64,000 bases of DNA. Origin: Patescibacteria group bacterium. Lineage in GTDB: Bacteria > Patescibacteriota > Patescibacteriia > UBA2591 > UBA4787. Below, one piece after another: positions 10,045 through 29,917 of the stretch. The stretch covers positions 210,816-274,815 of the forward strand of contig JAQUSN010000002.1 of the NCBI GenBank assembly GCA_028715115.1, written 5' to 3'. Position numbers and translations under genes: made by a program. The notes beneath the pieces are model-generated. The model saw only the letters and a program-made list of their open reading frames with translations, had not been told where the DNA came from and made no database searches. Numbering within the stretch: the stretch's first letter is position 1; the number at the start of each line of letters is the position of its first letter.

Positions 10045-10127
10045 ACCAACCACGGAGGACTTGTTCTAGGTCCACCTCAACAGGTCGGTTCTGTAAAGGA
10101 GCCACTCGTAGGTGGGCCTTTGCTTTT

Positions 10128-10200
10128 ATACAAAAAGACGAGATTGTTCTCGCCTTGTTTTTTATATAAAAAGACGAGTGTTCTTGCTCGTCTTTTTATA
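10128..10200 (+). terminator. Tandem terminators of the 'AAAAAGACGAG..CTCG' family.
   Basis: AAGACGAG TGTTCTT GCTCGTCTT perfect hairpin followed by TTTTAT. An upstream partial copy is GACGAGATTGTTCTCGCC. Confidence 0.6.
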
Positions 10201-13284: not shown

Positions 13285-13313
13285 TTGACAAAATTATAAA
13301 ATATGCTAATCTA
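13285..13313 (+). promoter_or_regulatory. Promoter TTGACAAAATTATAAAATATGCTAATCT (cassette e, first unit).
   Basis: Close match to the promoter at 9823. Confidence 0.45.
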
Positions 13314-13346
13314 TATTCATTGATCGAGGGTCTAAAAAGGAGCTAC

Positions 13347-13409
13347 ATGAAGAAGCTGAAGCCCGATCTTACGTTGATGCACACCCTGTACTGCGCGAGC
13401 GGCGACTGA
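13347..13409 (+). CDS. Possible 20 aa leader peptide (MKKLKPDLTLMHTLYCASGD).
   Basis: Good ribosome-binding site (AAAAAGGAG) 6 nt upstream. Followed by an ORF-free GC-rich region. Confidence 0.25.
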   Translation: MKKLKPDLTLMHTLYCASGD

Positions 13410-13580
13410 TCGCGGACCCGGGCCGGCCCGAACCGGTCGATCCATGGAGGAATAATGAGCGGATTCGTCTAAGAACCAGCCAGGTGCGGGTAAAACCCGC
13501 ACTAGTCCCACAATTAGGGGATGGTTCGAACCGGCGAATACATCCCTGAAGGAGCGTCCTGTGGCGCTCCTTTTCTTTTA
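13410..13580 (+). ncRNA. GC-rich untranslated segment ending in a terminator (AGGAGCG..CGCTCCT + TTTTCTTTT). Candidate small RNA or cis-regulatory leader.
   Basis: No ORF. Internal repeats of 'CGAACCGG'. A terminator hairpin at 13549-13580. Confidence 0.25.
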
Positions 13581-13594: not shown

Positions 13595-13623
13595 TTGACA
13601 AAAAACGAAAAAATAAATAATAT
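13595..13623 (+). promoter_or_regulatory. Promoter TTGACA-N17-TAATAT (cassette e, second unit).
   Basis: The track ORF 13595..14116 begins with the TTG of this -35 box. The true start is more likely 13679. Confidence 0.45.
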
Positions 13624-13678
13624 AAATATGGAGAGTTTATTCTCTTTTTCGCAAAGCACGCAAAACACTGGAGGAACC

Positions 13679-14116
13679 ATGGCAGAAGCAACGATGAGGG
13701 TCAACCGCCCATCGCGGTATCAAGACATCGCCGGGATAGCAATCACTATCCTGATTATGATCTTGGTGGCCTCTCCCGGTCTATACCCGATGATCAAGGG
13801 AGGACTGGTGATGAGCGCCAAGACCTCGGGATGGTTGACTACCACAATTCTTGTCGCGTCCGTGATCGTAGGTGTGATAGCGATGTTTGTCCTGGCCGAA
13901 TGGGATGCCCGTTCCAACAGATTCCCTTTCGCCGCCTGGAAGGTCATCCTCTGTACCTACCTCCTCAACTTCATCGTCTCGCTCACTCTCACCTTTGCCG
14001 CCGCAAGATCACCGGCTCACATCGTCTGCGCAATCGTCGGTGGTCTCTACGTCGGCGTCGTCGCCTTCGTAATGCTGTGTCTGTGGGCTATAGGCAGCAC
14101 CGAGGCGGAGCTCTAG
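13679..14116 (+). CDS. GC-rich polytopic membrane protein (about 145 aa, 4 TM).
   Basis: GGAGG ribosome-binding site 4-5 nt upstream of the ATG at 13679. Hydrophobic segments. Followed by complex terminators. Confidence 0.5.
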   Translation: MAEATMRVNRPSRYQDIAGIAITILIMILVASPGLYPMIKGGLVMSAKTSGWLTTTILVASVIVGVIAMFVLAEWDARSNRFPFAAWKVILCTYLLNFIVSLTLTFAAARSPAHIVCAIVGGLYVGVVAFVMLCLWAIGSTEAEL

Positions 14117-14139
14117 TACGCCCTCGGAGAACAAAATAA

Positions 14140-14240
14140 GTAGGGCTCGCAGAAAGCAAAACCAAATGGGTTTCGCCTACTCGCGAGCCCATTTGATTAT
14201 TATAAAAAGACGAGATTACTCTCGCTTTCTTTTTTTTTGT
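14140..14240 (+). terminator. Nested hairpins plus a copy of the shared 'AAAAAGACGAGATTACTCTCGC' terminator module.
   Basis: GGGCTCGC..GCGAGCCC and AAATGGG..CCCATTT stems, then GACGAGATTACTCTCGC followed by T9. Confidence 0.5.
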
Positions 14241-14246
14241 TTTTTT

Positions 14247-14285
14247 GGGGGGCCCGCCTGTTGACGGACGCAACTAAACTATTAC
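14247..14285 (+). repeat. Degenerate copy of the dispersed TCTGGGGT..ATGCAAG..TTAGAACC element (GGGGGGCCCGCCTGTTGACGGACGCAACTAAACT).
   Basis: Shares the GGGG..CCGCC..TTGACGGA(C/T)GCA core with the copy at 16588. Confidence 0.35.
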
Positions 14286-14313
14286 CAAAATAAACATTAA
14301 TAATTATTTAAAG

Positions 14314-16128
14314 TTATGATTTTATTCCTTTTTGCCTTCTTAGTTCTTCTGTTTCGTCTAAAATTATTTTTCTGATACGTATGTTCTTTGGCGTTACTTC
14401 TACTAATTCATCATCACCAATATACTCCAGGGCATCTTCAAGGTCCATTATTTGCGGAGCGTTAAAATGTTCAGCCGTGCCTTCGCCTCGGGAACGCATA
14501 TTACTAAGCCTCTTCTCTTTACAAACATTAACTCTCATATCTTGAGTGCGACTATTTTGGCCAACCACTTCTCCTTTATAAACCTTTTCACCTGGGCCAT
14601 AAAATAAAATACCGCGACCCTGAGCAATTAATAAACCATACAAACAAGTAATTCCCGATTCATGAGCAACTAATGAACCATGATTTCGTTCAATCTTCTT
14701 GTCAGTCTTTGGCCGATAACCATCAAAAAGAGTGTTCATAATGCCCAGGCCTCGAGTATCTGTTAAAAACCCGCTTCTGAATCCAAAGAGTCCGGCGGTA
14801 GGAACGGTAAACTCAAGATTGGTAATACCGTCTTCTGTTTTCATTTTTAAAAGTTGGCCCTGAACATTGCCAAGTTTTTGAATAATAATACCGGCATATT
14901 GTTCCGGCACATCGATAAAAATCAATTCCCATGGTTCCATCTTCTGACCATTAATTTCTTTTTCAATCACCTGGGGACGCGAAACCTGAAATTCATATCC
15001 TTCACGTCTCATTCTTTCAATTAAAATAGCCAAATGTAATTCTCCTCGTCCAGACACAATCCATTCGCCGGTTTGACTATCTTCAACTCTCAAGGCCATA
15101 TCTGTTTCAAGCTCTTTGTAAAGACGTTCTCTGATTTGACGAGAGGTGCTAAATTGCCCTTCTTTGCCGGCAAAAGGAGAAGAATTAATAGAAAAAATCA
15201 TTTTAACCGTAGGTTCGTCAATTTTTAAAACCGGTAAGGCGGTCGGATTATTAACGTCACTAATTGTTTCACCAATATTGATATCTGAAATCCCGGCTAT
15301 AGCAACAAGATCTCCGGCCTCGACTTTATCAACCTCTACTCTCTCTAGTCCCGAGAAATTCATTAAGCTGGTAAGACGGCAATTTTTAATTTCACCCGTG
15401 CGATTAATGTGGGACACTTCTTGGCCGGCCCTTAAAGTGCCGTTTTGCAACCGACCAATGGCAATACGGCCCTTAAAATTATCATAAGTAGTGGTTGTTA
15501 CTAACATTTGCAGGGTCGCTTGCGAATCAGATTTTGGCGCCGGAATATATTTTTCAATAGCTTCAAAAATGGGAATAATATCTGTCATTTTATCCAAATT
15601 TGCTTGCGTTCCTGCTTTACCTAATTTTGAAGAAGCATAAACTACCGGGAATTCAGCGGTTTCATCGTCAGCCCCAAGTTCTAAAAATAAATCAAAGGTT
15701 TTATCTAAAACAAAATTTGGCCGAGCATCTGGTTTGTCGATTTTATTAATGACCACAATTATTTTATGTTTTGTCTCCAGTGCCTTTTTTAAAACAAATC
15801 TTGTCTGTGGCATCGGACCTTCCTTAGCGTCAACTAGCAAAAGGCATCCATCGGCCATTTTTAAAACACGCTCAACTTCTCCCCCGAAGTCAGCATGACC
15901 GGGAGTGTCGATAATCTTTATCTTCAGATCATGCCACTCTACTGAAGCATTTTTGGAAAAAATAGTAATCCCTCTTTCTCTTTCTAATTCATTACTATCC
16001 ATAATACAAATATTTTGCGCGACTTCTTTTTTTAAGTGAGTTTGCGATTGTCTAAGTAAAGCATCCACGAGCGTTGTTTTGCCGTGGTCTACGTGAGCAA
16101 TGATAGCGACGTTTCTAATTTGTTTCAT
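14314..16128 (-). CDS. typA: Translational GTPase TypA/BipA.
   Basis: AHVDHGKTTL G-domain motif. 604 aa. EF-G-like domain order. Confidence 0.9.
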   Translation of the reverse strand: MKQIRNVAIIAHVDHGKTTLVDALLRQSQTHLKKEVAQNICIMDSNELERERGITIFSKNASVEWHDLKIKIIDTPGHADFGGEVERVLKMADGCLLLVDAKEGPMPQTRFVLKKALETKHKIIVVINKIDKPDARPNFVLDKTFDLFLELGADDETAEFPVVYASSKLGKAGTQANLDKMTDIIPIFEAIEKYIPAPKSDSQATLQMLVTTTTYDNFKGRIAIGRLQNGTLRAGQEVSHINRTGEIKNCRLTSLMNFSGLERVEVDKVEAGDLVAIAGISDINIGETISDVNNPTALPVLKIDEPTVKMIFSINSSPFAGKEGQFSTSRQIRERLYKELETDMALRVEDSQTGEWIVSGRGELHLAILIERMRREGYEFQVSRPQVIEKEINGQKMEPWELIFIDVPEQYAGIIIQKLGNVQGQLLKMKTEDGITNLEFTVPTAGLFGFRSGFLTDTRGLGIMNTLFDGYRPKTDKKIERNHGSLVAHESGITCLYGLLIAQGRGILFYGPGEKVYKGEVVGQNSRTQDMRVNVCKEKRLSNMRSRGEGTAEHFNAPQIMDLEDALEYIGDDELVEVTPKNIRIRKIILDETEELRRQKGIKS

Positions 16129-16257
16129 ATTTTATTTCGCAGCTATAAAATAAAAATCTTCCTGTCCATCAAGAAGATTATTATTCTTCCAGAAATAGCC
16201 TTAATTATTTTAGCTTTTATTATTCTAACAAAAATAGTAAAAATTGTCAACCGTCAT

Positions 16258-16286
16258 CTTGACAAAAGCGCAAAATGTGATAAAAT
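16258..16286 (+). promoter_or_regulatory. Promoter TTGACAAAAGCGCAAAATGTGATAAAAT (cassette f).
   Basis: Family consensus. Confidence 0.5.
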
Positions 16287-16311
16287 GTAAATATTGAACT
16301 CAGGAGGCTTT

Positions 16312-16497
16312 ATGACAAAGATCAGGACTGCAAACTGGATGCTCTGGATAGGATGTACGGCCCTTGTTGTAGGGGTCATCCTCTGCTTCTACACACACCT
16401 AAGCTGGTGGAAGGTGACGATGACTGGGATTGGGGCTGCGTCTTTACTGACGTCCATCTCCCTCGACCCCAGGGTAGCCTTCCCTTTCTTGGGATAG
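16312..16497 (+). CDS. Small membrane peptide of 61 aa (MTKIRTANWMLWIGCTALVVGVILCFYTHLSWWKVTMTGIGAASLLTSISLDPRVAFPFLG).
   Basis: AGGAGG ribosome-binding site 5-6 nt upstream. Two hydrophobic helices. The track ORF 16294..16497 begins at an upstream TTG. Confidence 0.5.
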   Translation: MTKIRTANWMLWIGCTALVVGVILCFYTHLSWWKVTMTGIGAASLLTSISLDPRVAFPFLG

Positions 16498-16585
16498 GCT
16501 CACCAAGAGTCTCCAGCAAATGGGACTCGACGTGAGCCTTTTGCTTTTACAAAAAAAGACGAGATTACTCTCGCCTCTTTTTATC
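16498..16585 (+). terminator. Hairpin GGCTCAC..GTGAGCC followed by TTTTGCTTTT, then the shared 'ACAAAAAAAGACGAGATTACTCTCGCCTCTTTTTAT' module.
   Basis: Same terminator module as at 10128 and 14205. A variant occurs at 27661. Confidence 0.55.
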
Positions 16586-16587
16586 TT

Positions 16588-16655
16588 GAGGAGGCGGCTC
16601 CACTAGTTGACGGATGCAGGGACGCCCGTTTATCGCCGCAGACAGATTATAACCG
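16588..16655 (+). repeat. Copy of the dispersed element (..GGCGGCTCCACTAGTTGACGGATGCAGGGACGCC..CAGACAGATTATAACC).
   Basis: Core ATGCA(A/G)GGACGCC + ..AGATTA(G/T)AACC shared with 17745. Confidence 0.4.
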
Positions 16656-16666
16656 GGATTATAATA

Positions 16667-17110
16667 TTATTTCTCTAACATTTCTTTTAATTTGTCTATA
16701 ACGGCATGTTTCCAAAAACGCATTGCATACCAACCAATTAATGGTTTAGCGAAAATGCGGAGAATAAAACTTTTTAACTCAATATTATAGGTATAATTAA
16801 TTTTCGTCCCCCCTGTAATTTCTTCCATTAAAAATTCTTCATGACCAGAAGTGCCAATGCCACTTTTATTGTCCGAAACATATCCAAGGGGCGGATGCAG
16901 TTGGGTGTCCATCTGTGCTGAAATAGTTCGGCCAAATGTTTTAGCTTTAATCTCCATAATGAGATGATTACCCTCTCGCTTAATAACGCGAATGGATTCG
17001 GCTACCGCTGGAAAATATTTGGGCATATTTTCAAAGTCGCTCATTATTCTATAAATTTCTTCTCGAGAAGCTTTTATAATCCAAGAGGCTTTTAAAATAA
17101 TTGTTTTCAT
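16667..17110 (-). CDS. SRPBCC (polyketide-cyclase/START-like) family protein.
   Basis: 147 aa with an SRPBCC-like pattern. Weak call. Confidence 0.4.
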   Translation of the reverse strand: MKTIILKASWIIKASREEIYRIMSDFENMPKYFPAVAESIRVIKREGNHLIMEIKAKTFGRTISAQMDTQLHPPLGYVSDNKSGIGTSGHEEFLMEEITGGTKINYTYNIELKSFILRIFAKPLIGWYAMRFWKHAVIDKLKEMLEK

Positions 17111-17180
17111 ATAATTATTATATTATAAAAAGAGTCCTTTATCAAGGCTCTTTTTATGTTGAAGTCACCCATCAGATAAT

Positions 17181-17678
17181 TTATAATCCTTGCTTAGTTC
17201 CCTTGGCCCTCTTAATCAGCTGTTCCCTTAATTCTTCAGCAACTTGAATCTTAAGACCAAAAAATCTACCTTCGCTCATGTTTCTGTTATTACCATAAGT
17301 AGAATAGCCGGCTGTTTGAACCTGTAAATCGCTTAGCCCTAACATTCTGCCAAGCAAACCCCGATAAATATCAATATTTTGTATTCTTTCATAGGGAATC
17401 GAAGTATATTTTTTCCAAATAACCCCTTTTTCAACTTTAATAGCGTCATCAGTAAGTTCATAGCGCCAAGAACGATAAAACAATTTCGACCATACAAAAC
17501 ACCAAATAAGACCAACAACAATAACAGCCACTGCCCAAAAAACAAAAGAAGCCAATGAAGTCCATTCCGTTATAATTAGTTTAAGTAAGGCAATGCACAA
17601 TATTACTAACAGAATAAGAAACCGAGAAATGCCCCTGAAGAAAAATAACCAAACCGCCTTAGGGTCTAATTGTTGCAT
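17181..17678 (-). CDS. Membrane protein with a bacterial PH domain (bPH_2/YdbS-like).
   Basis: Two N-terminal TM helices, then YERIQNIDIYRGLLGRMLGLSDLQVQTAG, typical of bPH_2. Confidence 0.55.
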   Translation of the reverse strand: MQQLDPKAVWLFFFRGISRFLILLVILCIALLKLIITEWTSLASFVFWAVAVIVVGLIWCFVWSKLFYRSWRYELTDDAIKVEKGVIWKKYTSIPYERIQNIDIYRGLLGRMLGLSDLQVQTAGYSTYGNNRNMSEGRFFGLKIQVAEELREQLIKRAKGTKQGL

Positions 17679-17744
17679 AATGATAAATAAAATTTATTAT
17701 TAATAAAACCTTAATTCCCAATATACAATAAAATAGTAATAAGT

Positions 17745-17795
17745 CAAGGTGCGGATGCAAGGACGCCTGCCCACTAGCAGGCAGATTAGAACCTA
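17745..17795 (+). repeat. Copy of the dispersed element (GCGGATGCAAGGACGCCTGCCCACTAGCAGGCAGATTAGAACCT).
   Basis: Contains the ATGCAAGGACGC and AGATTAGAACCT blocks. Confidence 0.45.
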
Positions 17796-17868
17796 AGAAT
17801 TGACAAGCTGGAATATAGACTTACTTTTTTAATGATATTTTTATCTGAAATGAGCCACAGACGTTTGT

Positions 17869-18411
17869 CTATGGCTCATCTTCTGTTTCCTCTGTGTGGT
17901 CCACTATTGGGAAAACGCTCAGGATCATCACGCTTAGGACTTTTCTCGGCAACATTAGCGTCACCATCTCGCCCATTGTTTTGCCTAACAGTTGTTGAGC
18001 CAACGGAGAATCAACCGAGGCAAAACAAATCTCTCTTCCTTTAGATTCCCGATAGCGTGGGTTAAAAACCAGATCGGCGGCTCCTACGATCCCGTAAACA
18101 TCCATCTCTTGAGTGTCGATGTCCAGCGTTTTGGCGCACATTCCTGGCCTGACTGTTGGAAGAACTCCGCTTTCGGGCGGCAGGTCTTCGATGAACTTAG
18201 GATCGTGCAGAAATTGCCGAACCGTTGCCAGGTTCTGCATCCGGCTCTTTTGCTGCCGCAGCAGGTTCAACCAATCAGGATTGTCGTGCCAACCACCACC
18301 AGTCTCGTACGATCTCCCAACCTGTCCCGATACTCGCTCTAACTCCTTCATTAGACTTGCGTGTTCTTTTTGAAGGAGCATAAGCGTTTCTCGAAACATT
18401 ATGTTTTCCAT
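17869..18411 (-). CDS. GreA/GreB-family transcription elongation factor-like protein. GC-rich cassette g.
   Basis: C-terminal FKBP-like segment ICFASVDSPLAQQLLGKTMGEMV resembles the GreA 'ISVNSPIARGLIGK..' region. N-terminal coiled coil. AAAGGAGG ribosome-binding site. Confidence 0.6.
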   Translation of the reverse strand: MENIMFRETLMLLQKEHASLMKELERVSGQVGRSYETGGGWHDNPDWLNLLRQQKSRMQNLATVRQFLHDPKFIEDLPPESGVLPTVRPGMCAKTLDIDTQEMDVYGIVGAADLVFNPRYRESKGREICFASVDSPLAQQLLGKTMGEMVTLMLPRKVLSVMILSVFPIVDHTEETEDEP

Positions 18412-18449
18412 TAGACCTCCTTTCTAGACTATAGTAGCTCTCTCTAACA

Positions 18450-18485
18450 CTATTAATATATCATTTTTTTACTTTTTGTCAAGTA
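18450..18485 (-). promoter_or_regulatory. Promoter CTTGACAAAAAGTAAAAAAATGATATATTAAT (minus strand) for the GreA-like gene.
   Basis: Same family consensus as the plus-strand cassettes. Confidence 0.45.
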
Positions 18486-18592
18486 AACAATTTTTAAAGG
18501 AATTAATCCTCTGTTTGGGCTTTTATTTTTTTTAAAAAAAATATCGTCGCGACATAAACGACAGTTAAACTTCACTCTATTATTTTAAATAA

Positions 18593-19051
18593 TCAAATAA
18601 CGATCAAATCTTCATTTTTAATTATTTTTTTTAATTCTAATAATTTATTAACAACATCAGGAATGGTGGAAATTTTTGGCTCGAATTGAGTCAATTTATT
18701 AATCGCTACCCATTGATATTCACTATATTCATCGCTTAATATAATTTCTCCTTCAATATGGCGGGCATAAAAATGTGGCAAAATCATAGAATCACCGCTT
18801 TTCTTTAAGTAAATATGATTAATCGTGAAAATGGGATAAATTTCTATTTTAAATCCTCCTCCGACCTCTTCGTTTTTTTCCCTTTGCAAACCGGCGATAA
18901 AAGATTTATCTGGAGTTTCCATTTTACCGCCTATAAAAGAGTATACCCCATCATAATCATTCTCTCCCTTTCTCTTGCATAGTAAAACACTTGTCATATC
19001 CTTGGAGAAGACTACTGTTTTCTGGCAATATTGAAAATTATATTTTTCCAT
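18593..19051 (-). CDS. NUDIX hydrolase.
   Basis: Nudix box GGKMETPDKSFIAGLQREKNEEVG. Confidence 0.7.
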   Translation of the reverse strand: MEKYNFQYCQKTVVFSKDMTSVLLCKRKGENDYDGVYSFIGGKMETPDKSFIAGLQREKNEEVGGGFKIEIYPIFTINHIYLKKSGDSMILPHFYARHIEGEIILSDEYSEYQWVAINKLTQFEPKISTIPDVVNKLLELKKIIKNEDLIVI

Positions 19052-19065
19052 GAACTAAGGCTTAA

Positions 19066-20652
19066 TTATTGAATTTTTATTGGTTGCCCGTTTCGAGACT
19101 TATCTCTATAGATCGTAATACCTTTTAAATTTAAATCAATGGCCATTAATAAAATATTTTTTATTTCATCTACCGTGGTATCTTCGGAAACATTCACGGT
19201 TTTAGAAATTGATTCATCTACAAATTCCTGTATGGCTGATATTATTAACAACTGATCCTTCGGTGAGATCCTTAACATGTCACGAAAGAATGGTTCTATG
19301 GATTGAGAAGCCTTGATAATAAGGCACGACCGGCCGGTAGGAGGCAAAGAAACAGTGGCGCAATTTCTAATCCCGTGCTCCCTAATCTCTGCATCAAGAG
19401 CCAACCAACTGTCTCTAGAAACAGTTTCGGTTTCTTGACGAGAATATCTTCTAATAATACTATCATCTCCGACATACCTGGATTTTTCAAAATCACCAAA
19501 AGCCCCGCGCTCTAAAGCTAATTCTGATGATGTTTTTTTTGAAATATAATTTATAAAACTAAAAATATTTCTAGCCAACTCTATAGCCTCAGGACTAGCA
19601 TAATCAATTTTTAACTTGGCTAATAAATCTGCAAAGCCGCAAACCCCGAGGCCAATTTTCCTTTTTTTCTTTGCTATGTCCCTACTTGCATCACTTTCAT
19701 ATCGTGAAATATTATATTCAACAGTATCGTCAAGGAATCTCACCACCAATTCAATCGCTTGTTTTAGTCCATCATAATCAATTGAACCATCATTAACAAA
19801 TTGACCAAGATTAATATAGGAAAACTGGCATGTTTCTCCTTCGGCCAAGCCTACTTCTCCGCATGGTGCTAGTGATTTATATGCTCCGGCACTTGGCACC
19901 TGATTATCCCTATTCAATCGATCAACAAAAGACAATCCTGGCTCACCGCTAGTATATATAGATCTTGCCATCTGATCTATTATCTCCGTTGAAGAAACGG
20001 TGCGGCCATCCTTTGAAATAATTGGTTCGCCGTTTTTAATTTTATGAGCGCTGTCCTCGTCAACATTCACTGAAAAATTAAATATCCAAGGACGATTTTT
20101 ATGAGCATTCTTAATCTGAATAAAATCGGTTATTCTTGGATGAGTAATAGCTAAGGACCCCATATTCCCAACTGGTCTAAGCTGCTTATCACTTGCCTGT
20201 CCTTCGATTGCTATATTATTTAAATATTCAATAATTGGAGTTGGATCCTCAATATCATCAAAATTAAAACCCGTACCCATTCCACTATTATGTAAATTGT
20301 CTACAACCCTTTTAACCCTAGATAAATCGCCCCCAAGGTCAACTGACGGAACAATGCAAGCCGATAACGGCTCGTTTTTCATTCTTCCAGCATTCATTAA
20401 AATAGGCGTGCTGGGAATAAATTTTTTGTCTTTTAAAAGCTGAAAGATTTGGGCCTTAAACCGATCGACGCGCTCCTGATCCGAATAAATCGTTTCGACT
20501 TCTGCCACGGCATCTACCACTCGCTGGAAAATTCTCAAAATATTTTCGCCTTTTTCGGCAATACCGAATTTATACAAAGCCTCTTCGCTAATAAATCCTT
20601 CTGTTTCTTCTGAATGTTTTGGATTACTTGCTTCAAAGTGTTCTAGTGTCAT
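19066..20652 (-). CDS. nrdJ: Ribonucleotide reductase, class II (adenosylcobalamin-dependent)-like. The track ORF extends to 20724, but its first 24 codons lie in the dispersed repeat, so the start is more likely MTLEHF at about 20652.
   Basis: PSTPILMNAG, NSGMGTGFNF and APCGEVGLAEGETCQFSYINL motifs of the RNR catalytic barrel. Confidence 0.65.
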   Translation of the reverse strand: MTLEHFEASNPKHSEETEGFISEEALYKFGIAEKGENILRIFQRVVDAVAEVETIYSDQERVDRFKAQIFQLLKDKKFIPSTPILMNAGRMKNEPLSACIVPSVDLGGDLSRVKRVVDNLHNSGMGTGFNFDDIEDPTPIIEYLNNIAIEGQASDKQLRPVGNMGSLAITHPRITDFIQIKNAHKNRPWIFNFSVNVDEDSAHKIKNGEPIISKDGRTVSSTEIIDQMARSIYTSGEPGLSFVDRLNRDNQVPSAGAYKSLAPCGEVGLAEGETCQFSYINLGQFVNDGSIDYDGLKQAIELVVRFLDDTVEYNISRYESDASRDIAKKKRKIGLGVCGFADLLAKLKIDYASPEAIELARNIFSFINYISKKTSSELALERGAFGDFEKSRYVGDDSIIRRYSRQETETVSRDSWLALDAEIREHGIRNCATVSLPPTGRSCLIIKASQSIEPFFRDMLRISPKDQLLIISAIQEFVDESISKTVNVSEDTTVDEIKNILLMAIDLNLKGITIYRDKSRNGQPIKIQ

Positions 20653-20696
20653 TTGGTTAATGAAATTATTATAAAATAAAGTATTTAATTTTTTAT

Positions 20697-20760
20697 ATTT
20701 TGGGGTGGCTCCGCCATTCGCCAATCGGCGAAGGCAGATGCAAGAATGTTAGAACCTATT
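20697..20760 (+). repeat. Copy of the dispersed element (TTTTGGGGTGGCTCCGCC..GGCAGATGCAAGAATGTTAGAACCT).
   Basis: The left end TGGGGTGGCT equals the complement of the 3' end of tRNA-His at 29843. Contains the minigene ATGCAAGAATGTTAG. Confidence 0.5.
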
Positions 20761-21132
20761 TTGTTTTTTCCTTACCCAATTAATAATAAATAAAACTCCT
20801 ATAAAGAATGCCGGACCAGCAACCATTAAAATCCAAGATACCATATACCACTGAAATGAATCTTTTAATATATTAACCAATATTAATATAACATATAATA
20901 TACCGGCCATAATAAAGACAATTCCGCTAATGATCTCTCGTTTCCAAAATGTTATCAAAATAATTAATAGAATAAATACCGGGATATTATGTATAAATAA
21001 TCCTATAATTATTTGCCAAAAACTTAATTCGGGAGAAATAATATCAAGCGAAAATAAGGTTAAAAAAAAGATAAATATTATTGATAAAATTCTTGGCGCC
21101 CAATATATAAATTTATTTATTTTTTGATTCAT
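20749..21132 (-). CDS. Hypothetical polytopic membrane protein.
   Basis: Four predicted TM helices. No family recognised. Confidence 0.4.
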   Translation of the reverse strand: MNQKINKFIYWAPRILSIIFIFFLTLFSLDIISPELSFWQIIIGLFIHNIPVFILLIILITFWKREIISGIVFIMAGILYVILILVNILKDSFQWYMVSWILMVAGPAFFIGVLFIINWVRKKQNRF

Positions 21133-21340
21133 AAACTAATTATAATCAGAAAAATTTTTAAAGCAAGAGGCCAAAAACCCTTATACAGAAAGATTAGGGC
21201 CGGTCTTGCACCATAAGCCAAAAAAATTCCCGGAAAATAAATTATAAACCACCTTAGACCATAGTATTTATGTTTGCATACTATAAGATTGCCCCCGCAT
21301 TCTCCTTTATCTATAACCTCAACAGAATATCCGTCTGATA

Positions 21341-24007: not shown

Positions 24008-24232
24008 TTTAAAAAATTGAAATTATAAATTAAATGACTTATATGTAAACACAAACTATTATATATTGTATCATGAAGAGTTAAATTTATTAAAATTATA
24101 ATTATTTCGGATATTATTATTCTATCACCATACTTTTATTTCTGGCGGAATTACTTACGATATATGACAAAAAATTTAAGGTTATCATTTTCATCAACTA
24201 TATCAAATAATTCTTCGTTCATAGATTATTTT

Positions 24233-24859
24233 TTAAAATTTAACTTCTTGACCGTCTCCGATAAACCCACAAATACCGTCTTCGCAAAACATGCCCTGTC
24301 CATCTCGTAATATATGCAATGGATGTTTGAGGTTTTTTAAGTTTCGCCTCACTGATTCTTCTTTATCATCATTATAATGAACCTTTAGAACAAAGGGCAC
24401 ATAATTTAAGGCAGTATAATCAGTTATTCCAAATTTATCTTTACCGTCTTGATTCCAATTGGCTACCTCGATGGTTGGACACATAATATAAGACCCGCAA
24501 CTTGTGCCAACATAAACTCTACCTTCATCAAGTAGCTCTTTAAGAATATCGGCAAAACCGGTTTCTCTTATCGCTTTTAATAAATAGAAAGTATTACCGG
24601 CTTCAATGTAAACGACATTTTTATCTTTAAAAAAATCTTTTATTTCCTGCTTGGTTTTCCCTTCTATATCAAAATCTTCGATATTATAGCCATTTTCTTT
24701 TATCGTCTCTGTTATTTTCTTGAAAAAATCTATATGAGTACGAGACACTTTATAGGCAGTTATAATATGACCGATTTTCATCTCACTCTTTGAAATGCCA
24801 GTTAAATTAAAACCGTACTTAAGAATAAATGTATAATCTGATCCAAGTATTAATTTCAT
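24233..24859 (-). CDS. Peptidase S51 (dipeptidase E-like) family protein.
   Basis: GTSCGSYIM nucleophile motif and overall S51 fold pattern. Confidence 0.6.
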   Translation of the reverse strand: MKLILGSDYTFILKYGFNLTGISKSEMKIGHIITAYKVSRTHIDFFKKITETIKENGYNIEDFDIEGKTKQEIKDFFKDKNVVYIEAGNTFYLLKAIRETGFADILKELLDEGRVYVGTSCGSYIMCPTIEVANWNQDGKDKFGITDYTALNYVPFVLKVHYNDDKEESVRRNLKNLKHPLHILRDGQGMFCEDGICGFIGDGQEVKF

Positions 24860-24879
24860 ATTTTAATTATAAATAAAAA

Positions 24880-24963
24880 TTGCCCAAATGGCAATAGTTA
24901 TATAAAAACGGTCTGGGGTCACTCCGCCAGTTGGCGGATGCAAGAATGTTAGAACCTGTTGCT
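24880..24963 (+). repeat. Full-length copy of the dispersed element (CCAAATGGCAATAGTTATATAAAAACGGTCTGGGGTCACTCCGCCAGTTGGCGGATGCAAGAATGTTAGAACCTGTT).
   Basis: Shares both the AAATGGCAATAGTTATAATAAAAAC and the TCTGGGGT..TTAGAACCTGTT modules with the copies at 25785, 28198 and 29420. Confidence 0.55.
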
Positions 24964-25107
24964 ACCCTACCCCTTAACTCGAGATGTGTTTTTCTGGAAG
25001 ACTGAGACGATTTTCGAACTTTTAGGTTAGCTTAATTTAATTACCTTTAATTCTAAAAATCGCTCTTTTTAAAGAACGACTTTTAGAATAATTATTATTG
25101 GTAATAA

Positions 25108-25740
25108 TTAATTAAACAATTTCAATAACCAACCAAATAGGCTAAATTTTCCTTCTTGTGCCTTTATAAAATTTTCAATTTTTGTCTGTTCCTGCTCTAA
25201 TATTTTAATTTGACTCTGGATTTCTGTTTGATCGCCTTCGTTTTGATTATTTTCCATTAACCTGTTTAATTGCTCTAACCTGTTTCTAGTTCTAACGGTT
25301 TCACTTCTTAAAGCACCGAGGTTTTTGTAATCAGAACCAAAAAGAAATGTTTTAATTTGACTTCTGGTCTGAATTTTTTCCATTGATTGAAGGGATTTTT
25401 CCGTTGATTGATTTTGTTCTTGAGCGATTACTCTAACTTGCTCTCCGATTCCCTCCTCTCTGTCAGCAACCCCTAAAAGACTTTGAACAAAATTTGTTAC
25501 GGTGCTTTTGTGGGCTTGAACCGAAAGCTGTTCCTGTTGTTGAGCTTGTAATTGTTCCTGATTCTGTTCCTGATTCTGTTCCTGATTCTGTTCCTGCCCT
25601 ACATTCATCTCTTGATTCTGTTCACGACTTTGTACTTGATTCATGTTTTGTGCTCTCGCATTAACGCTAAAAGCTAAAGAAAAGACAAGAACCATTGTTA
25701 AAATAACTACGAATAATTTAATTTTTTTGATATTTTCCAT
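25108..25740 (-). CDS. Secreted coiled-coil protein, paralog of 9026..9652, with an N-terminal QNQE tandem repeat.
   Basis: Signal peptide. 12 nt tandem repeat (TTCCTGATTCTG x3-4 at about 25560-25600, coding QNQEQNQE..). Conserved C-terminal region shared with 9026..9652. Confidence 0.6.
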   Translation of the reverse strand: MENIKKIKLFVVILTMVLVFSLAFSVNARAQNMNQVQSREQNQEMNVGQEQNQEQNQEQNQEQLQAQQQEQLSVQAHKSTVTNFVQSLLGVADREEGIGEQVRVIAQEQNQSTEKSLQSMEKIQTRSQIKTFLFGSDYKNLGALRSETVRTRNRLEQLNRLMENNQNEGDQTEIQSQIKILEQEQTKIENFIKAQEGKFSLFGWLLKLFN

Positions 25741-25784
25741 AGTTTTTTTAGTTTTAATAAATCGACCTTTCGTTTATTCTATCA

Positions 25785-25858
25785 AAAAACCGCCTAAATG
25801 GCAATAGTTATAATAAAAACTTCTGGGGTGGTCTATTAGACACTATTAGAACCTGTTT
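25785..25858 (+). repeat. Copy of the dispersed element (AACCGCCTAAATGGCAATAGTTATAATAAAAACTTCTGGGGTGGTCTATTAGACACTATTAGAACCTGTT).
   Basis: As above. The central part is divergent. Confidence 0.5.
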
Positions 25859-25988
25859 TGATAAAGAGAGATTTGGGTTTGTGAGAGAGTGGATTTAGAT
25901 AAAATCTGCTTGGCTAAAGCCATTTCGCTACGTAAAATTACAATATTCTTTATTAACTATAATTTGGACTAAAAATAGATAATCAAAA

Positions 25989-26219
25989 TTACTTATTTCT
26001 TATTCCCTTTAAAATTACAGCACTTAAGATAAAGGCAATGGTAAAAAATATCGCTCCGTAAAAACAAGGCGTCAAAAAGGGATTAACCAGACCCTGAACG
26101 CAGCCAGTAGTGCAGACTCGTTTGTTGAGCCAATTAACCAATTCAATCGTAAAGATAACCCAAGCGAATATGGTGCCGCCCAGCAAGATTATAAATTGGG
26201 TTAAAATAGTTTTTTTCAT
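25989..26219 (-). CDS. Small two-TM membrane protein with a CxxC motif (CTTGC).
   Basis: 76 aa, hydrophobic. No family assigned. Confidence 0.35.
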   Translation of the reverse strand: MKKTILTQFIILLGGTIFAWVIFTIELVNWLNKRVCTTGCVQGLVNPFLTPCFYGAIFFTIAFILSAVILKGIRNK

Positions 26220-26273
26220 AATAATCTTTATTAATGTTAATCGTATTAAATCAGAAGAAAATTAAAAAAATAT

Positions 26274-26555
26274 TTATTGATTCTTTTTTATTTTAATCGC
26301 TTTGCCTTCAACCAAAGCCTCGGCAATTTTTTGTCTAGCTGATGTTAGAATTCTTTGTAATGTGCTTTGGGAAATCTTCATTTTCTTCGCCGCCTCTGTT
26401 TGCTCAAAATTTTTAGAATCACACAGTCTAATTGCTTCTAATTCATCAGCCTTCAATTCAACCTCTTCTAACATTGAAAGAGGAACGGCTCTTGGCTTAA
26501 AGTAAACTACGTTTGGATTGAATTTTATTAATCTTGATATTTGTGGTCTTGTCAT
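26274..26555 (-). CDS. DUF134 (UPF0251) predicted DNA-binding protein.
   Basis: Typical DUF134 sequence with a C-terminal sigma-70 region-4-like HTH (ISQSTLQRIL). Confidence 0.65.
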   Translation of the reverse strand: MTRPQISRLIKFNPNVVYFKPRAVPLSMLEEVELKADELEAIRLCDSKNFEQTEAAKKMKISQSTLQRILTSARQKIAEALVEGKAIKIKKNQ

Positions 26556-26637
26556 ATTCTATATTTTATGTTAATCTTTTTTTGGAAGAAGGCCCCCGGC
26601 CCCTTATTGCAAAGAGGCCGGTTCCCGGTGCCTTCTT

Positions 26638-26898
26638 TTATTTTTGCTGGTCTTTCAGGGCAGCTTTTTCTTCACGAATTGCCGCCAGCTTTTCTTCAAG
26701 ATTTTTTTCTTCTTTTTCTAAAGCAGCTAGTTCATTTTTAGGAGAGATAAATCTTCTAAAACCGAAGCTATAGCCATAGCCGCATCCGCATCCGCAACCA
26801 CGGCCCCGCCTCATTCCCATACCACCACCGCAAGGACCCATCCCTCGACCAGTACCAGCACCTTGTCCCATTGGACCAGTTCCATCTAATTTTGGCAT
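26638..26898 (-). CDS. DUF5320-like Gly/Cys-rich protein with a C-terminal coiled coil.
   Basis: MPKLDGTGPMGQGAGTGRGMGPCGGG N-terminus and CGCGCG run typical of DUF5320. This family is commonly adjacent to DUF134. Confidence 0.55.
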   Translation of the reverse strand: MPKLDGTGPMGQGAGTGRGMGPCGGGMGMRRGRGCGCGCGYGYSFGFRRFISPKNELAALEKEEKNLEEKLAAIREEKAALKDQQK

Positions 26899-27014
26899 AG
26901 TTTTAAAGTTAGTTGTTGATAATGGCAGAGTGACCTTTATTATCCCTGCCTATTATGAATATATATTCAAAACTATCTTTTGTCAAATTATACCTGTGGA
27001 TAAGTTAAAATAAA

Positions 27015-27090
27015 AAAATCGCCTAATTAGCAACACTTTTTAGACTCAAGTCTTCTCTAGGTCCCTTATGCAAGGACGTTAGAACCCGGA
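27015..27090 (+). repeat. Copy of the dispersed element (..TCTCTAGGTCCCTTATGCAAGGACGTTAGAACCC). It is the left direct repeat of cassette h.
   Basis: 19 nt (27068-27086, ATGCAAGGACGTTAGAACC) identical to 27712-27730. Confidence 0.55.
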
Positions 27091-27119
27091 TATTGATAAA
27101 TATGGCTAAAATGGGGGTC

Positions 27120-27147
27120 TTGACAAAAGGATAAAATGTGATATGAT
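27120..27147 (+). promoter_or_regulatory. Promoter CTTGACAAAAGGATAAAATGTGATATGAT (cassette h).
   Basis: -35 TTGACA, 16 nt spacer, -10 TATGAT. Confidence 0.5.
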
Positions 27148-27218
27148 ATAAGTACAGAATTCAATAGAGTCTTCTAATCCCTTGTCTCACGACAAGGATA
27201 TTCTCAAGGAGGTAACTC

Positions 27219-27605
27219 ATGAAAAAGCTGGCCCTGTTTGCAACGTATAGCGTTTTGACGTGGGGGTGCATTTTCGCCACGACCCACAAGCCCCTCCCTG
27301 GCCTCATCGGCATTCTGTTGTATGCAGTATTGGTTCTCTACTTCGATGTCGAGGACCGCAGATGGTGGGCTCGCAACCACAAACGGACACAGTCACCTGC
27401 ACCCAACTTCGACGTCATCACGGGATATAGTTGGCTGATGGTAGGCGCAGTCTCTTTCTTGGTGAGCCTACCCTTCATGCCAAGCACCGCCACCATCTTC
27501 CATGTCTTCGCTCCTACGTTTGTAACGACCATCATCGCCGGAGCTATCAACACGCTGATGAGACTACACCAAAACAGCCACGACCAGAAAGTCGTCAGAG
27601 GCTAA
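27219..27605 (+). CDS. GC-rich membrane protein of 128 aa.
   Basis: AAGGAGG ribosome-binding site 6 nt upstream. 3-4 TM helices. The 5' UTR contains a CCTTGTC..GACAAGG hairpin. Confidence 0.5.
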   Translation: MKKLALFATYSVLTWGCIFATTHKPLPGLIGILLYAVLVLYFDVEDRRWWARNHKRTQSPAPNFDVITGYSWLMVGAVSFLVSLPFMPSTATIFHVFAPTFVTTIIAGAINTLMRLHQNSHDQKVVRG

Positions 27606-27624
27606 GGCCTCGTTCCGACAAATA

Positions 27625-27698
27625 AGGGGACACGAACAGTAGCGTGACCCCTTTTCAGTTAACAAAAAAAGAGTAATCACTTACTCTCTTTTTATTTT
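27625..27698 (+). terminator. Two hairpins, the second being a variant of the shared module (ACAAAAAAAGAGTAATCACTTACTCTCTTTTTATTTT).
   Basis: AGAGTAA..TTACTCT stem flanked by an A tract and a T tract. Confidence 0.55.
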
Positions 27699-27735
27699 AA
27701 GGAGGTCACCTATGCAAGGACGTTAGAACCTGTTG
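27699..27735 (+). repeat. Copy of the dispersed element (AAGGAGGTCACCTATGCAAGGACGTTAGAACCTGTT). It is the right direct repeat of cassette h and contains an SD + ATG-CAA-GGA-CGT-TAG minigene.
   Basis: Identical 19-mer to the copy at 27068. Confidence 0.55.
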
Positions 27736-28175
27736 CGAAGTTGTTTAAGGTGAAAATTTAAAAACTTTCTTTGTTCCGAAATTATATTATTAGGCAACTT
27801 GTTAAAAATTGCTATTTTTGTAGCTTCTTTATTAAGTTTAAATTTTTCTGATTCGGGTTTACATAAAAGAGCTAAACCAATTGTTCGTCCATATCCCCGC
27901 TCTTTCCGTTCGCTAGGATATTCAATAAAGCCAATGCTTTTTATTATTTTAACCGAAACACCAATCTCTTCTTTAGAAATTCTAGTAGCCGCCCTTCTTA
28001 TCGTTTCGTTATACAAAACCGTTCCCCCTGGAATATGCCATTGATTATACCAGTGCGGAAGGTCTCTTAGAGTTAAGACTATTCCTTTTTTTGTTTTAAC
28101 AACAAGCTCAATGGTTAATCTTGGAACCTTGGAATATATTTGCTTAAATTCTTTTAAAGAAAATGGTTTTCCCAT
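27723..28175 (-). CDS. NUDIX-like hydrolase (GDP-mannose mannosyl hydrolase-like variant).
   Basis: Degenerate Nudix box GGTVLYNETIRRAATRISKEEIG. Adjacent to a glycosyltransferase. Confidence 0.45.
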   Translation of the reverse strand: MGKPFSLKEFKQIYSKVPRLTIELVVKTKKGIVLTLRDLPHWYNQWHIPGGTVLYNETIRRAATRISKEEIGVSVKIIKSIGFIEYPSERKERGYGRTIGLALLCKPESEKFKLNKEATKIAIFNKLPNNIISEQRKFLNFHLKQLRNRF

Positions 28176-28197
28176 ATCATTTATTCTATCAAAGAAT

Positions 28198-28265
28198 TAC
28201 CAAATGGCAATAGTTATAATAAACCGATCTGGGGTCCCTTATGCAACTATTTTACTTAGAACTAG
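28198..28265 (+). repeat. Copy of the dispersed element (CCAAATGGCAATAGTTATAATAAACCGATCTGGGGTCCCTTATGCAACTATTTTACTTAGAACTAG).
   Basis: Both modules are present. The right end is divergent. Confidence 0.5.
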
Positions 28266-29382
28266 CCCGTTTGATGACTGACATTATTTGAGCATTAATA
28301 ACCCTAGGATTAAGAATTTTTCTTAAATTATTAATTTTTTTAGGTATTATTTGTTGACCACATAAAGACATTATTTTCTCAACCGTTTTTTTAGTATCAT
28401 TAAAAGACACTATCAAATTTTCTAAACCCGCCATTTTAAAAACTTCAGCACAGCCCATGTTTTCACTAACAAGGGCAGGGACCCCCATACATGCAGCTTC
28501 TATTGGAACATTCCCAAAAGTTTCAAACGACGAAGGACAAACAATAAGTCCTTGTGATAAATAAAATTTTAAAAGTTTGTCGTGTGTCATAGGCATAAGT
28601 CTATTTATTTTATTTGGGAAATTTTTAATTTTTGCTCCTCCCGTAACAAATGAAGCTTTATGCCTCCACCCTTTTTTTAGCAATGTTTTATGAATATTAA
28701 AAAATTCCTTAAAATTTTTTATCTCATCCCATCTGCCAACGGCAGCAATACGCCGCTTCAAACCCTTAAAAGTTATTTTTCCTGCGGGAATATTAAATGG
28801 ATTGGGTATTATAAAAGAATTTTTTATTTTTTTATTTATAATCTCTTTTTCAACCACATTCCTACATAAACGTGATGGAAAAATAAAATAATTAACTCTT
28901 TTCTGAAAAGATTTTTCTATTTGATTAAAAAATTTCTTTGCCTTTGGTTTTTCGTTCTTTGTTTCCTTTGAGTAGACCCCAGCATATCTTAAAACTATCG
29001 GGATTTTAAGCTCATAAGCAGCAATAGACATAAGCCAAGGTACATAATATGTTCCGTTTAAAAAAACTACTCTTGGCTTGTTCTTAATTAATATTGCCTT
29101 AATTATTTTAATAATAGGACGATATTTTTTTTCTAAATCCTTAAGAGATTTTGAAGAATAAATAGCTTTATATATTGAAATGTCATGAATGTTTATAATG
29201 TGATGATTAAACCAGGGCGAAGGAAGATGCTTAAAAATATCAGGGCCCAACACATATCTTCTATTATTTAACTCTAAACCAATAATTCCTTTACTTTTTC
29301 CATAAAGAAAATTTATAAAACTAATATTGGACCTCGTGATTCCGCCAAGGTATTCTCTTGTAACATTTGTTGCTATTGTCAT
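28252..29382 (-). CDS. Glycosyltransferase family 1 (GT4-like).
   Basis: C-terminal E..G..LEA..G.P motif region (FETFGNVPIEAACMGVPALV). Confidence 0.75.
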   Translation of the reverse strand: MTIATNVTREYLGGITRSNISFINFLYGKSKGIIGLELNNRRYVLGPDIFKHLPSPWFNHHIINIHDISIYKAIYSSKSLKDLEKKYRPIIKIIKAILIKNKPRVVFLNGTYYVPWLMSIAAYELKIPIVLRYAGVYSKETKNEKPKAKKFFNQIEKSFQKRVNYFIFPSRLCRNVVEKEIINKKIKNSFIIPNPFNIPAGKITFKGLKRRIAAVGRWDEIKNFKEFFNIHKTLLKKGWRHKASFVTGGAKIKNFPNKINRLMPMTHDKLLKFYLSQGLIVCPSSFETFGNVPIEAACMGVPALVSENMGCAEVFKMAGLENLIVSFNDTKKTVEKIMSLCGQQIIPKKINNLRKILNPRVINAQIMSVIKRASSK

Positions 29383-29419
29383 ATTTTTTAATTATACTAA
29401 AAAAGAACTTATTGTTAAG

Positions 29420-29463
29420 GCTCTTCTGGGGTCCCTTATGCAAGAACGTTAGAACCTGTTTGT
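29420..29463 (+). repeat. Copy of the dispersed element (CTCTTCTGGGGTCCCTTATGCAAGAACGTTAGAACCTGTT).
   Basis: Near-consensus right module with the ATGCAAGAACGTTAG minigene. Confidence 0.55.
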
Positions 29464-29842: not shown

Positions 29843-29917
29843 TGGGGTGGCTAACGGGATTCGAACCCGTGCTAAAAGCTCCACAGGCTTCTGTGCTACC
29901 ACTACACCATAGCCACC
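29843..29917 (-). tRNA. tRNA-His (anticodon GTG), with G-1 and an encoded CCA.
   Basis: Folded by hand. 8 bp acceptor stem with G-1:C73, D arm GTGT/GCAC, anticodon loop CTGTGGA, T arm ACGGG-TTCGAAT-CCCGT. Lies directly downstream of hisS. Confidence 0.8.

Follow-up and report, generated by a model that had tools for sequence, protein, structure and literature searches.

What are the short repeats that crowd the DNA downstream of a histidine tRNA (tRNA-His) gene in a Patescibacteria genome, and do they bound pieces of DNA that move as units? The window considered here is the whole stretch of 64,000 nucleotides that was analysed (assembly GCA_028715115.1, contig JAQUSN010000002.1, positions 210,816 to 274,815), and the element in question had been described in an earlier note, made from the sequence alone, as a dispersed repeat of about ten copies with a tRNA-His-like end and a role like that of an attachment (att) site. 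The feature is real, non-random and structured, and the repeats are most likely tRNA-His-derived recombination sites that organise a cassette-rich flexible region of this genome. Patescibacteria (Candidate Phyla Radiation) have very small genomes and their gene gain and loss are poorly known; the literature that we searched holds no report of integrons or of tRNA-seeded cassette arrays in Patescibacteria.

The window is a segment of a cellular, bacterial chromosome with a guanine plus cytosine (GC) content of about 37%, whose minus strand carries almost all genes, including those for BipA/TypA, ribonucleotide reductase, a P-type ATPase, histidyl-tRNA synthetase, UvrABC and DnaJ. It comes from the same strain as GCA_028686935.1, GCA_028713815.1 and several Logan assemblies. 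A phage origin was rejected, as the genes are cellular and no megablast match was obtained among 50,697 phage records. The tRNA-His (GTG) gene lies at 29843-29916 on the minus strand (identified with ARAGORN, with the Rfam tRNA model at 68.6 bits, and by sequence) and starts 12 bp downstream of the histidyl-tRNA synthetase gene (29929-31290, Pfam). Its 3' end reads ...AGCCACCCCA followed by GG, which is the sequence copied by the core of the element.

A clustered, polar repeat built around an 8-bp core

Seven copies of the repeat are solid, two are diverged long forms and one is doubtful. Using a profile of the compact element, we obtained seven matches with E<0.001 (at 29425, 28228, 27704, 27060, 25822, 24912 and 20738), all on one strand, and no further match in the 64-kb window; the 19-mer ATGCAAGRAYGTTAGAACC occurs five times, always on the plus strand, against none expected from shuffles. 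The ten copies counted in the earlier note can be kept with this grading, the diverged long forms being those at 17745 and 16588 and the doubtful one that at 14247. Their common orientation is confirmed: all copies are oriented as the tRNA-His gene (minus strand) and lie at 14.2-29.5 kb, within 15.6 kb directly downstream of it, and the remaining 48 kb of the window contain none. If uniform placement is assumed, the probability of finding seven solid copies in that stretch is about 5e-5. Within the window the element score drops with distance from the tRNA-His gene, from 39 bits to undetectable, which fits older sites lying further from the gene; no such gradient is seen in the related locus L004 described below.

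This distribution bears on the possibility that the element is a selfish repeat, small and non-autonomous, of the REP (repetitive extragenic palindrome), BIME (bacterial interspersed mosaic element) or MITE (miniature inverted-repeat transposable element) kind, which would spread through intergenic DNA, owe its tRNA-His likeness to its origin or to a target preference, and have the cassettes as bystanders. We regard this as distinctly unlikely. Within the window the copies are not dispersed but confined to one 15.6-kb stretch and one strand, though about 49 further genes with their spacers are available in the 64 kb; the compact copies have no palindrome, no terminal inverted repeats and no fold signal, and no target-site duplication is apparent at the copies. 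The long forms do carry GC-rich palindromic inserts, as REP-like repeats do, and the limitation of the family to a narrow lineage would also suit a selfish repeat.

The motif is composite. Read on the plus strand, it consists of a promoter -35/UP region, the 8-bp core TCTGGGGT and an arm ending in GTTRGAAC, the core being the reverse complement of ACCCCA plus GA, the 3' end of tRNA-His. Over 21 copies the information content is 1.83 bits per position in the core (8 bp), 0.43 in the 20 nt to its left and 0.71 in the 16 nt to its right. The left flanks belong to three unrelated classes, namely a leaderless-type promoter, a terminator hairpin (AAGAGCC..GGCTCT) and the terminator of the plus-strand cassettes (AAAAAGACGAG..CTCGCC); the arms are of types A, B and long B; and every combination of flank class and arm type is found in the alignment. 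A promoter or terminator that looks functional flanks the core in every copy. Of the single motif proposed earlier, the 19-mer family, the core and the arm are real, but the AAATGGCAATAGTTATAATAAAAAC block is present in three copies only: read on the opposite strand, it is the UP/-35 region (TTGCCA) that belongs to sigma70-like promoters for downstream minus-strand genes. The -10 boxes of the element-linked promoters lie 6-10 nt upstream of the ATG of the next minus-strand gene.

Starting from the tRNA-His gene, and with all copies on the minus strand, copy 1 (29420-29462) is a compact type B element with the core TCTGGGGT at 29425-29432 (plus-strand reading), the arm CCCTTATGCAAGAACGTTAGAACCTGTT and a profile score of 39.2 bits; the terminator of a gene for a 77-amino-acid protein lies on one side of it and the promoter of a glycosyltransferase gene (TTAACA-16-TATAAT) on the other. 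Copy 2 (28183-28265), also matched by the profile, has a promoter at 28210-28183 (TTGCCA-16-TAGAAT), a core at 28228-28235 and a diverged arm that includes the glycosyltransferase stop codon. Copies 3 and 4 stand to the right and left of a cassette, named h: copy 3 (27699-27734) matches the profile in spite of a degenerate core (AAGGAGGT) and has the 19-mer at 27712-27730, and copy 4 (27046-27092; 27.9 bits) has a core-like TCTAGGTC at 27056-27063 and the 19-mer at 27068-27086. Copy 5 (25776-25858), another profile match, combines a promoter at 25804-25776 (TTGCCA-17-TAGAAT) and a core at 25822-25829 with the variant arm GGTCTATTAGACACTATTAGAACC.

The copies further away are mostly long forms. 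Copy 6 (24866-24960) has a promoter at 24894-24866 (TTGCCA-17-TATAAT), a core at 24912-24919 and a hairpin, CCGCCAGTTGGCGG, followed by the arm ATGCAAGAATGTTAGAACC. Copy 7 (20699-20762), the closest match to the tRNA-His end in the window, has the core TTTGGGGT followed by GGCT (minus strand GGAGCCACCCCA) and a 27-nt hairpin (fold z -3.8). Copy 8 (17745-17797) is a diverged long form with a degenerate core, TCAAGGTG, and a hairpin (GCCTGCC..GGCAG) between ATGCAAGGAC and ATTAGAACC. Copy 9 (16588-16655), strongly diverged and also with a degenerate core, comes immediately after the terminator of the plus-strand cassette at 16257-16584, and the heavily decayed and doubtful copy 10 (14243-14285), which the compact-element profile missed, comes after the terminator of the plus-strand cassette at 13595-14235 and has only TTGACGGAYGCA in common with copy 9.

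The hairpin had been presented as a part of the motif. It is optional: GC-rich hairpins are confined to the long forms, where they are inserted at two fixed positions, and the compact copies do not fold beyond their shuffles (z -0.4 to +0.8, about 0). Aligning the copies, as had been proposed, gave a sharp core and defined arm types. Nor are all copies intergenic, as had been stated, since the stop codons of three minus-strand genes (at 27723, 20749 and 28252) fall inside the arm. The NUDIX protein and the DUF7670 protein, which are unrelated, both end in -NRF followed by a stop codon (27723-27734, in copy 3, and 20749-20760, in copy 7), encoded by the arm AAYAGGTTCTAA, and the boundary of the element therefore reaches into the 3' ends of both open reading frames (ORFs).

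These positions recall a function in RNA, in which the element would be a tRNA-like 3' module of minus-strand mRNAs (a closing stem, optional arms and an ACCCCA end) that marks the RNA for processing or stabilises it, with RNase P, RNase Z or the CCA-adding enzyme as possible partners, in the manner of organellar t-elements. The element follows or overlaps minus-strand stop codons and a terminator comes next, which implies transcription in the tRNA sense; hairpins are tolerated at two fixed places, as in a folded single strand; and, as read from the sequence, GGTTCT of type B can pair with GGGACC just before CCA. We nevertheless hold this explanation to be very improbable, for the compact copies fold like shuffled sequence, the closing stem is lost between types A and B (GCC against GGG is uncompensated and the pairing register differs in the alignment), neither ARAGORN nor Rfam reports a tRNA-like gene at a copy in the window or in the related loci, and the cassette swap at the core, described below, is not accounted for by a function in RNA. 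Rfam has no family for the elements or for the cassettes.

The conserved five-codon minigene reported earlier does not stand. Its string is found in five copies, with an SD-like (Shine-Dalgarno-like) sequence upstream in only one or two of them; type A and B' copies of the related loci lack its ATG; and the plus strand at this place lies downstream of terminators or antisense to genes. The minigene looked translatable because SD-like sequences, AAGGAGGT and GAGGAGGC, take the place of the core at cassette h (27699-27706) and at the cassette 16257-16584 (16590-16597), and it is a by-product. By contrast, the remark that the element supplies the apparent N-terminus of ribonucleotide reductase was right: this ORF (19066-20724) opens at a TTG inside the copy at 20699, and translation more probably starts 24 codons further on, at an ATG that a TATAAT box precedes.

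Related loci, the tRNA-His end and a cassette swap

Scans with exact patterns gave four matches in a genome collection and six in metagenomes; one of the former, L004, and one of the latter, L006, are related loci and the others are chance matches. Two scans of viral contigs gave none, or chance matches inside coding sequence only, and a distant BLAST search with cassette and element gave no match among phages and plasmids. The contig of L004 (CAYRSQ010000034.1, 8.15 kb) ends in a tRNA-His gene (7782-7855) 94% identical to that of the window, and contains about 14 copies of the element in 7.8 kb, all in the tRNA-His sense, which split it into segments of 0.3-0.9 kb. L006, which belongs to a metagenome contig of 182 kb, carries six copies or more. 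The record of L004 is titled "uncultured archaeon", a label that looks wrong because the locus has sigma70-type promoters, SD sequences, intrinsic terminators and a bacterial-type tRNA-His, and because the closest named homologues of its EngB are those of Candidatus Magasanikbacteria.

These two loci show the link to tRNA-His much more clearly than the window does. The type A copies of L004 carry TCTGGGGTGGCT, identical at 12 of 12 positions to the reverse complement of the tRNA end ...AGCCACCCCA plus the next two bases, and, beyond an insertion of 5 nt, 13 of the following 17 nt agree with the T arm (shuffle p 0.008-0.019). Moreover, the promoter-bearing flank of the real tRNA-His gene of L004 (..ATATTGCCCAAATGGCAATATC followed directly by TCTGGGGT) is homologous to flanks of the element in L004, L006 and the window. 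The arrays of the window and of L004 both have an intact tRNA-His gene at one end and displaced fragments of its 3' end in direct orientation, though these are short in comparison with typical att sites.

Comparison of the two related loci revealed an exchange. L004 1-261 matches L006 1660-1933 and L004 664-1425 matches L006 2227-2998, the shared parts being a cassette without an obvious ORF (85% identity) and a segment with EngB (94% identity). Between them, L004 has 402 bp that include a type A arm, a promoter, an ORF for a 38-amino-acid membrane protein and a terminator; the 293 bp at this place in L006 are unrelated. On the left, identity ends exactly after TCYGGGGT and, on the right, it restarts exactly at TCTGGGGT, so that both breakpoints fall at the core. 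An att-like role draws its support mainly from these relatives (the 12-bp match, the T arm and the swap at the core), and the integrase and the empty site that would go with it were not found, as detailed below. The two loci also differ by whole inter-copy segments and not by the presence of the repeat alone, which is difficult to reconcile with a selfish repeat; on the other side, copies of the element between core genes, and an intergenic site in L006 between the ABC-F and EngB genes that is element-free in a relative, would indicate the colonisation of places away from a tRNA that such a repeat predicts.

The window, L004 and L006 each contain the element together with the promoter and terminator motifs of the cassettes; none of the three is present in loci of relatives whose EngB is 77-79% identical. 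Promoter and terminator sequences of the GC-rich units of the window recur in the cassettes of L004, and the plus-strand cassettes have in common about 90 nt of 5' sequence (the arm, ATTGA..GTTAAT, then the promoter TTGACAAAAG..TGTGCTATAAT) and about 60 nt of 3' sequence (the terminator AAAAAGACGAG..CTCGCC) around unrelated ORFs. Cytidylyltransferase-like proteins are encoded in both the window and L006 and are not orthologues.

Such shared blocks would be expected if the repeats were conserved intergenic linkers (terminator, element, promoter) with a mainly transcriptional function, exchanged by homologous recombination with no dedicated recombinase. There is a precedent in the PeSL (promoter early stem-loop) sequences of T4-type phages, whose exchange is thought to be homologous (PMC2839356, PMC4122927): there too, conserved promoter and terminator blocks flank diverse small ORFs without a known function in hypervariable regions, and differences by indel or replacement map to the blocks. 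The promoter or terminator beside every core, the lack of a recombinase domain among the ORFs of the array, L004 and L006, and the fact that homologous exchange between diverged repeats would also break at the most conserved 8 bp all agree with this explanation. It is unlikely in our opinion, as a core of 8 bp with weakly conserved flanks is a poor substrate for homologous recombination and typical of a site-specific core, and as the occurrence of all combinations of flank class and arm type needs exchange inside these 8 bp; the copying of tRNA-His (by the core, and in type A copies by 12 bp and a sequence resembling the T arm), the shared sense and the clustering are also left unexplained. 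The mapped swap between L004 and L006 breaks at the core, which lies between the blocks. Unlike the PeSL case, the host is a Patescibacteria chromosome and not a T4-type phage, and there is an additional tRNA-derived core with strict polarity beside a tRNA gene.

Cassettes and a proposed mechanism

The segments between copies measure 0.4-4 kb in the window, with one to three genes each, and most contain AT-rich genes on the minus strand. They encode a glycosyltransferase, NUDIX hydrolases, a DUF5320/DUF134 pair, a secreted protein of 210 amino acids, and an S51 peptidase with a P-type ATPase and the DUF7670 protein. Segments of L006 include a ParE/Phd pair and an ArsR-type regulator, and those of L004 an asparaginase-like gene and several ORFs without a Pfam match. 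Cassettes carry their own sigma70-like promoters and terminators, and both orientations occur.

Cassette h (27093-27698, plus strand) consists of a promoter at 27120-27147 (TTGACA-16-TATGAT), the SD sequence AAGGAGGT, an ORF for 128 amino acids at 27219-27605 with a GC fraction of 0.53, and a bidirectional terminator. The search for homologues of its protein gave a partial copy of 79 amino acids, 96% identical, in an assembly of the same organism, and no other. The identical 19-mers at 27068-27086 and 27712-27730 do bracket it, as the earlier note had pointed out, and are compatible with an attL/attR pair or a target-site duplication. They are not specific evidence for either, because their GGAC variant recurs in a third copy, at 17755 (ATGCAAGGAC; a related ATGCAGGGAC is at 16588), and the crossover that we infer lies at the core and not within the 19-mer.

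Cassette h is one of several moron-like units of the window with a GC content of 50-56%. They have a TTGACA(AAAG) promoter close to the consensus and a strong SD, then a small ORF that often encodes a membrane protein, and a strong terminator. For the plus-strand cassettes, h among them, the GC content is 52-56%. They lie on the plus strand at 8640-9010, 9810-10199, 13283-13575, 13595-14235, 16257-16584, 27118-27698 (cassette h) and 61575-62050, and on the minus strand at 17869-18490; most are antisense to their neighbours. A link between element and GC-rich cassettes, proposed previously, is not an exclusive one. It stands for the three units that adjoin the tRNA-His-like element; the unit at 13283-13575 reaches an element solely by way of cassette C, and most segments between copies are AT-rich.

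We lean towards reading the repeats as recombination sites of an att-like kind that descend from the tRNA-His end and bound small cassettes, which a recombinase encoded elsewhere would move. Small gene segments would have accumulated downstream of the tRNA-His gene, with the repeats marking segment boundaries. Read on the minus strand, the arm (GGTTCYAAC...) is a diverged mimic of the T arm, and the core ACCCCAGA corresponds to the last six bases of the tRNA, including CCA, and two flanking bases. The next segment then opens in one of three ways: with a leaderless-type promoter, with a terminator hairpin or, where an antisense GC-rich cassette follows, with its bidirectional terminator. The recombinase, most likely a tyrosine integrase, would exchange strands in or beside the core, perhaps by way of a circular intermediate, and segments would be inserted, lost or swapped as units, the arm moving with the segment of one side and the promoter or terminator with that of the other. 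Copies may also have spread to the flanks of core genes, and the system may still be active.

Several results weigh against this proposal. In the window the identity of the element to the tRNA-His end, which had been called an exact complement, is real but covers 8 nt only (ACCCCAGA against ACCCCAGG), or 10 of 12 in the copy at 20699, and in L006 there is no tRNA-His gene within the 13 kb examined. No integrase, recombinase, transposase or rve domain was detected with Pfam in the ORFs of 14.3-31.3 kb, and no integrase, recombinase or transposase domain among the annotated neighbours over 1-15, 28-41 and 51-64 kb of the window (41-51 kb being outside both scans) or in the ORFs of L004 and L006; the cognate integrase that the earlier note had suggested to look for is thus missing from the parts scanned. 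No empty site or variant arrangement, also called for, occurs among at least eight contigs of the same strain, which are 99.97-100% identical, and no circular form was found. The polymorphism amounts to the one replacement between L004 and L006, a single clean swap whose breakpoints repeat-mediated homologous recombination would give as well. Apparently native core genes lie between copies, namely those for BipA, ribonucleotide reductase and the P-type ATPase in the window and EngB in L004 and L006, and the GC-rich units at 8640-9010, 9810-10199, 17869-18490 and 61575-62050 have no element alongside. L006 has three copies and two cassettes between its ABC-F and EngB genes, where a relative (about 79% DNA identity in EngB and ABC-F) has only a small GIY-YIG gene and no element; sites can therefore establish away from a tRNA, and simple accretion at the tRNA gene cannot explain everything. 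It is because of the core genes between copies, the L006 copies, the element-free GC-rich cassettes, the lack of polymorphism and the single swap that we state a preference for site-specific recombination and not a firm conclusion.

How does this organisation compare with known mobile systems? In tRNA-linked islands, integrated by tyrosine integrases and detected by Islander, a regenerated tRNA gene and a displaced 3' fragment mark the island ends, and only 4 of 3919 islands are in tandem arrays of three or more (PMC4383910); in the tRNA-seeded islands that tycheposons build in Prochlorococcus, one integration after another moves the older elements further in, and partial tRNAs lie scattered through the island (bioRxiv 10.1101/2020.12.28.424599). 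The intact tRNA gene at one end, the direct repeats of its 3' end in the adjacent variable region and the different content in relatives are features in common. Unlike such islands, the array has no integrase found in or near it, its segments are tiny (0.3-4 kb, often one gene), 10-14 repeats are packed in 8-16 kb, the identity to the tRNA is 8-12 bp against about 40 bp, and some repeats flank core genes away from the tRNA.

We consider the organisation closer to that of an integron array or of a CALIN (cluster of attC sites lacking an integron integrase). A CALIN is a cluster of attC sites that by definition lacks the integrase. Dense, mostly single-gene cassettes bounded by repeats in one orientation, without a recombinase inside the cassettes, are found in both cases, as are products such as a protein without a homologue outside the organism, several without a Pfam match and a toxin-antitoxin pair. 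The sites themselves are nevertheless not attC, a candidate that was rejected on its end motifs and fold: the right end, GTTAGAA, fits GTTRRRY at 6 of 7 positions, but the left end, TCTGGGGT, is not RYYYAAC, the two ends are not complementary and the compact copies have no fold. Furthermore, integron cassettes are promoterless and co-oriented, whereas these come with a promoter and a terminator of their own and lie in either orientation; neither intI nor attI was seen in the scanned parts of the window, L004 or L006; and the sites are tRNA-derived.

In Acinetobacter plasmids, dif modules are small gene modules bounded by 28-bp dif-like XerC/XerD sites of alternating orientation, with the recombinase presumably encoded elsewhere. 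The likeness lies in short recombination sites that bound small gene modules and in a recombinase that would be supplied from another place; the sites described here differ in being tRNA-His-like direct repeats with no resemblance to dif.

A bolder version of the preferred reading can be put forward only tentatively: some Patescibacteria, of a Magasanikbacteria-like kind, might carry an active platform for cassette capture, parallel to the integron and assembled from other parts. These would be sites that mimic tRNA-His, an 8-bp crossover core, cassettes with their own promoter and terminator in either orientation (many encoding GC-rich, SD-dependent small membrane proteins foreign to a leaderless-looking host), a recombinase encoded elsewhere, and sites able to seed new arrays between core genes. 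If this were true, streamlined uncultivated bacteria would keep a dedicated region for flexible genes, and TCTGGGGT with GTTRGAAC beside a tRNA-His gene would provide a signature for finding such regions in metagenomes. The array is also a natural set of cassettes, whose products, mostly small membrane proteins and one of them without a homologue outside this organism, might take part in host-symbiont or phage interactions. Should the sites be nothing more than decayed att scars, the region would be an ordinary, though unusually crowded, tRNA-linked island.

Other readings of the element and further features of the loci

Other readings of parts of the element were considered and set aside. Sigma-54 and Bacteroidetes-type promoter readings of GGTTCTAAC..TTGCAT were rejected on spacing, which is wrong as read from the sequence. 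A hairpin element of the IS200/IS605 type would require a transposase, which is lacking, and the compact copies are hairpin-free; TGGGGTGGCT as a primer-binding site is not accompanied by a reverse transcriptase. These last two judgements were made from the letters of the window.

The native AT-rich genes of the window (GC 25-43%) have no SD sequence and their -10 boxes are 6-10 nt before the ATG, which suggests that their mRNAs are leaderless. A strong SD is restricted to the GC-rich genes, and two regimes of translation initiation appear to coexist in one genome. A block of three genes at 41283-42953 (minus strand) also has SD sequences and a GC content of 56-58% in this 37% GC genome; its first product is annotated with a phosphoribosyltransferase domain, and the block looks horizontally acquired. 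At 61165-61485 (minus strand) there is a GC-rich unit of about 320 nt with a TTGACA-17-TATATT promoter and a strong terminator, with a predicted fold far more stable than that of its shuffles (z -5.3); it matches no Rfam family above threshold, its only ORF would give an implausible Arg-rich 86-mer, and it is a candidate structured non-coding RNA. The GC-rich cassette shared by L004 (1-253) and L006 (1660-1925) is possibly a small RNA cassette as well: it has a promoter and a terminator and no convincing ORF, with about 150 nt transcribed and 85% identity between the loci, and it has no Rfam match.

Two paralogous secreted proteins of 208 and 210 amino acids, 44% identical and with conserved C-terminal halves, are encoded on the minus strand at 9026-9652 and 25108-25740; the second gene sits in the array, 16 kb from the other, and has a 12-bp tandem repeat at 25532-25642. 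The gene at 10628-12868 (minus strand) encodes a surface-type protein of 746 amino acids with matches to PA14, SpaA and TSP1, and contains an internal repeat of 179 nt, 91% identical between 11523-11701 and 12468-12646. In L006, a palindromic repeat different from the element, AACATCCTTACATTCTCAAGTTTGTAAGGATGTT, is present in three copies (5630-5660, 5975-6010 and 6890-6925) beside small regulator genes. The same locus encodes, at 11817-12575 on the minus strand, a conserved protein of the family that NCBI names group I intron-associated PD-(D/E)XK endonuclease, which is very widespread (878 homologues with E<=1e-20).

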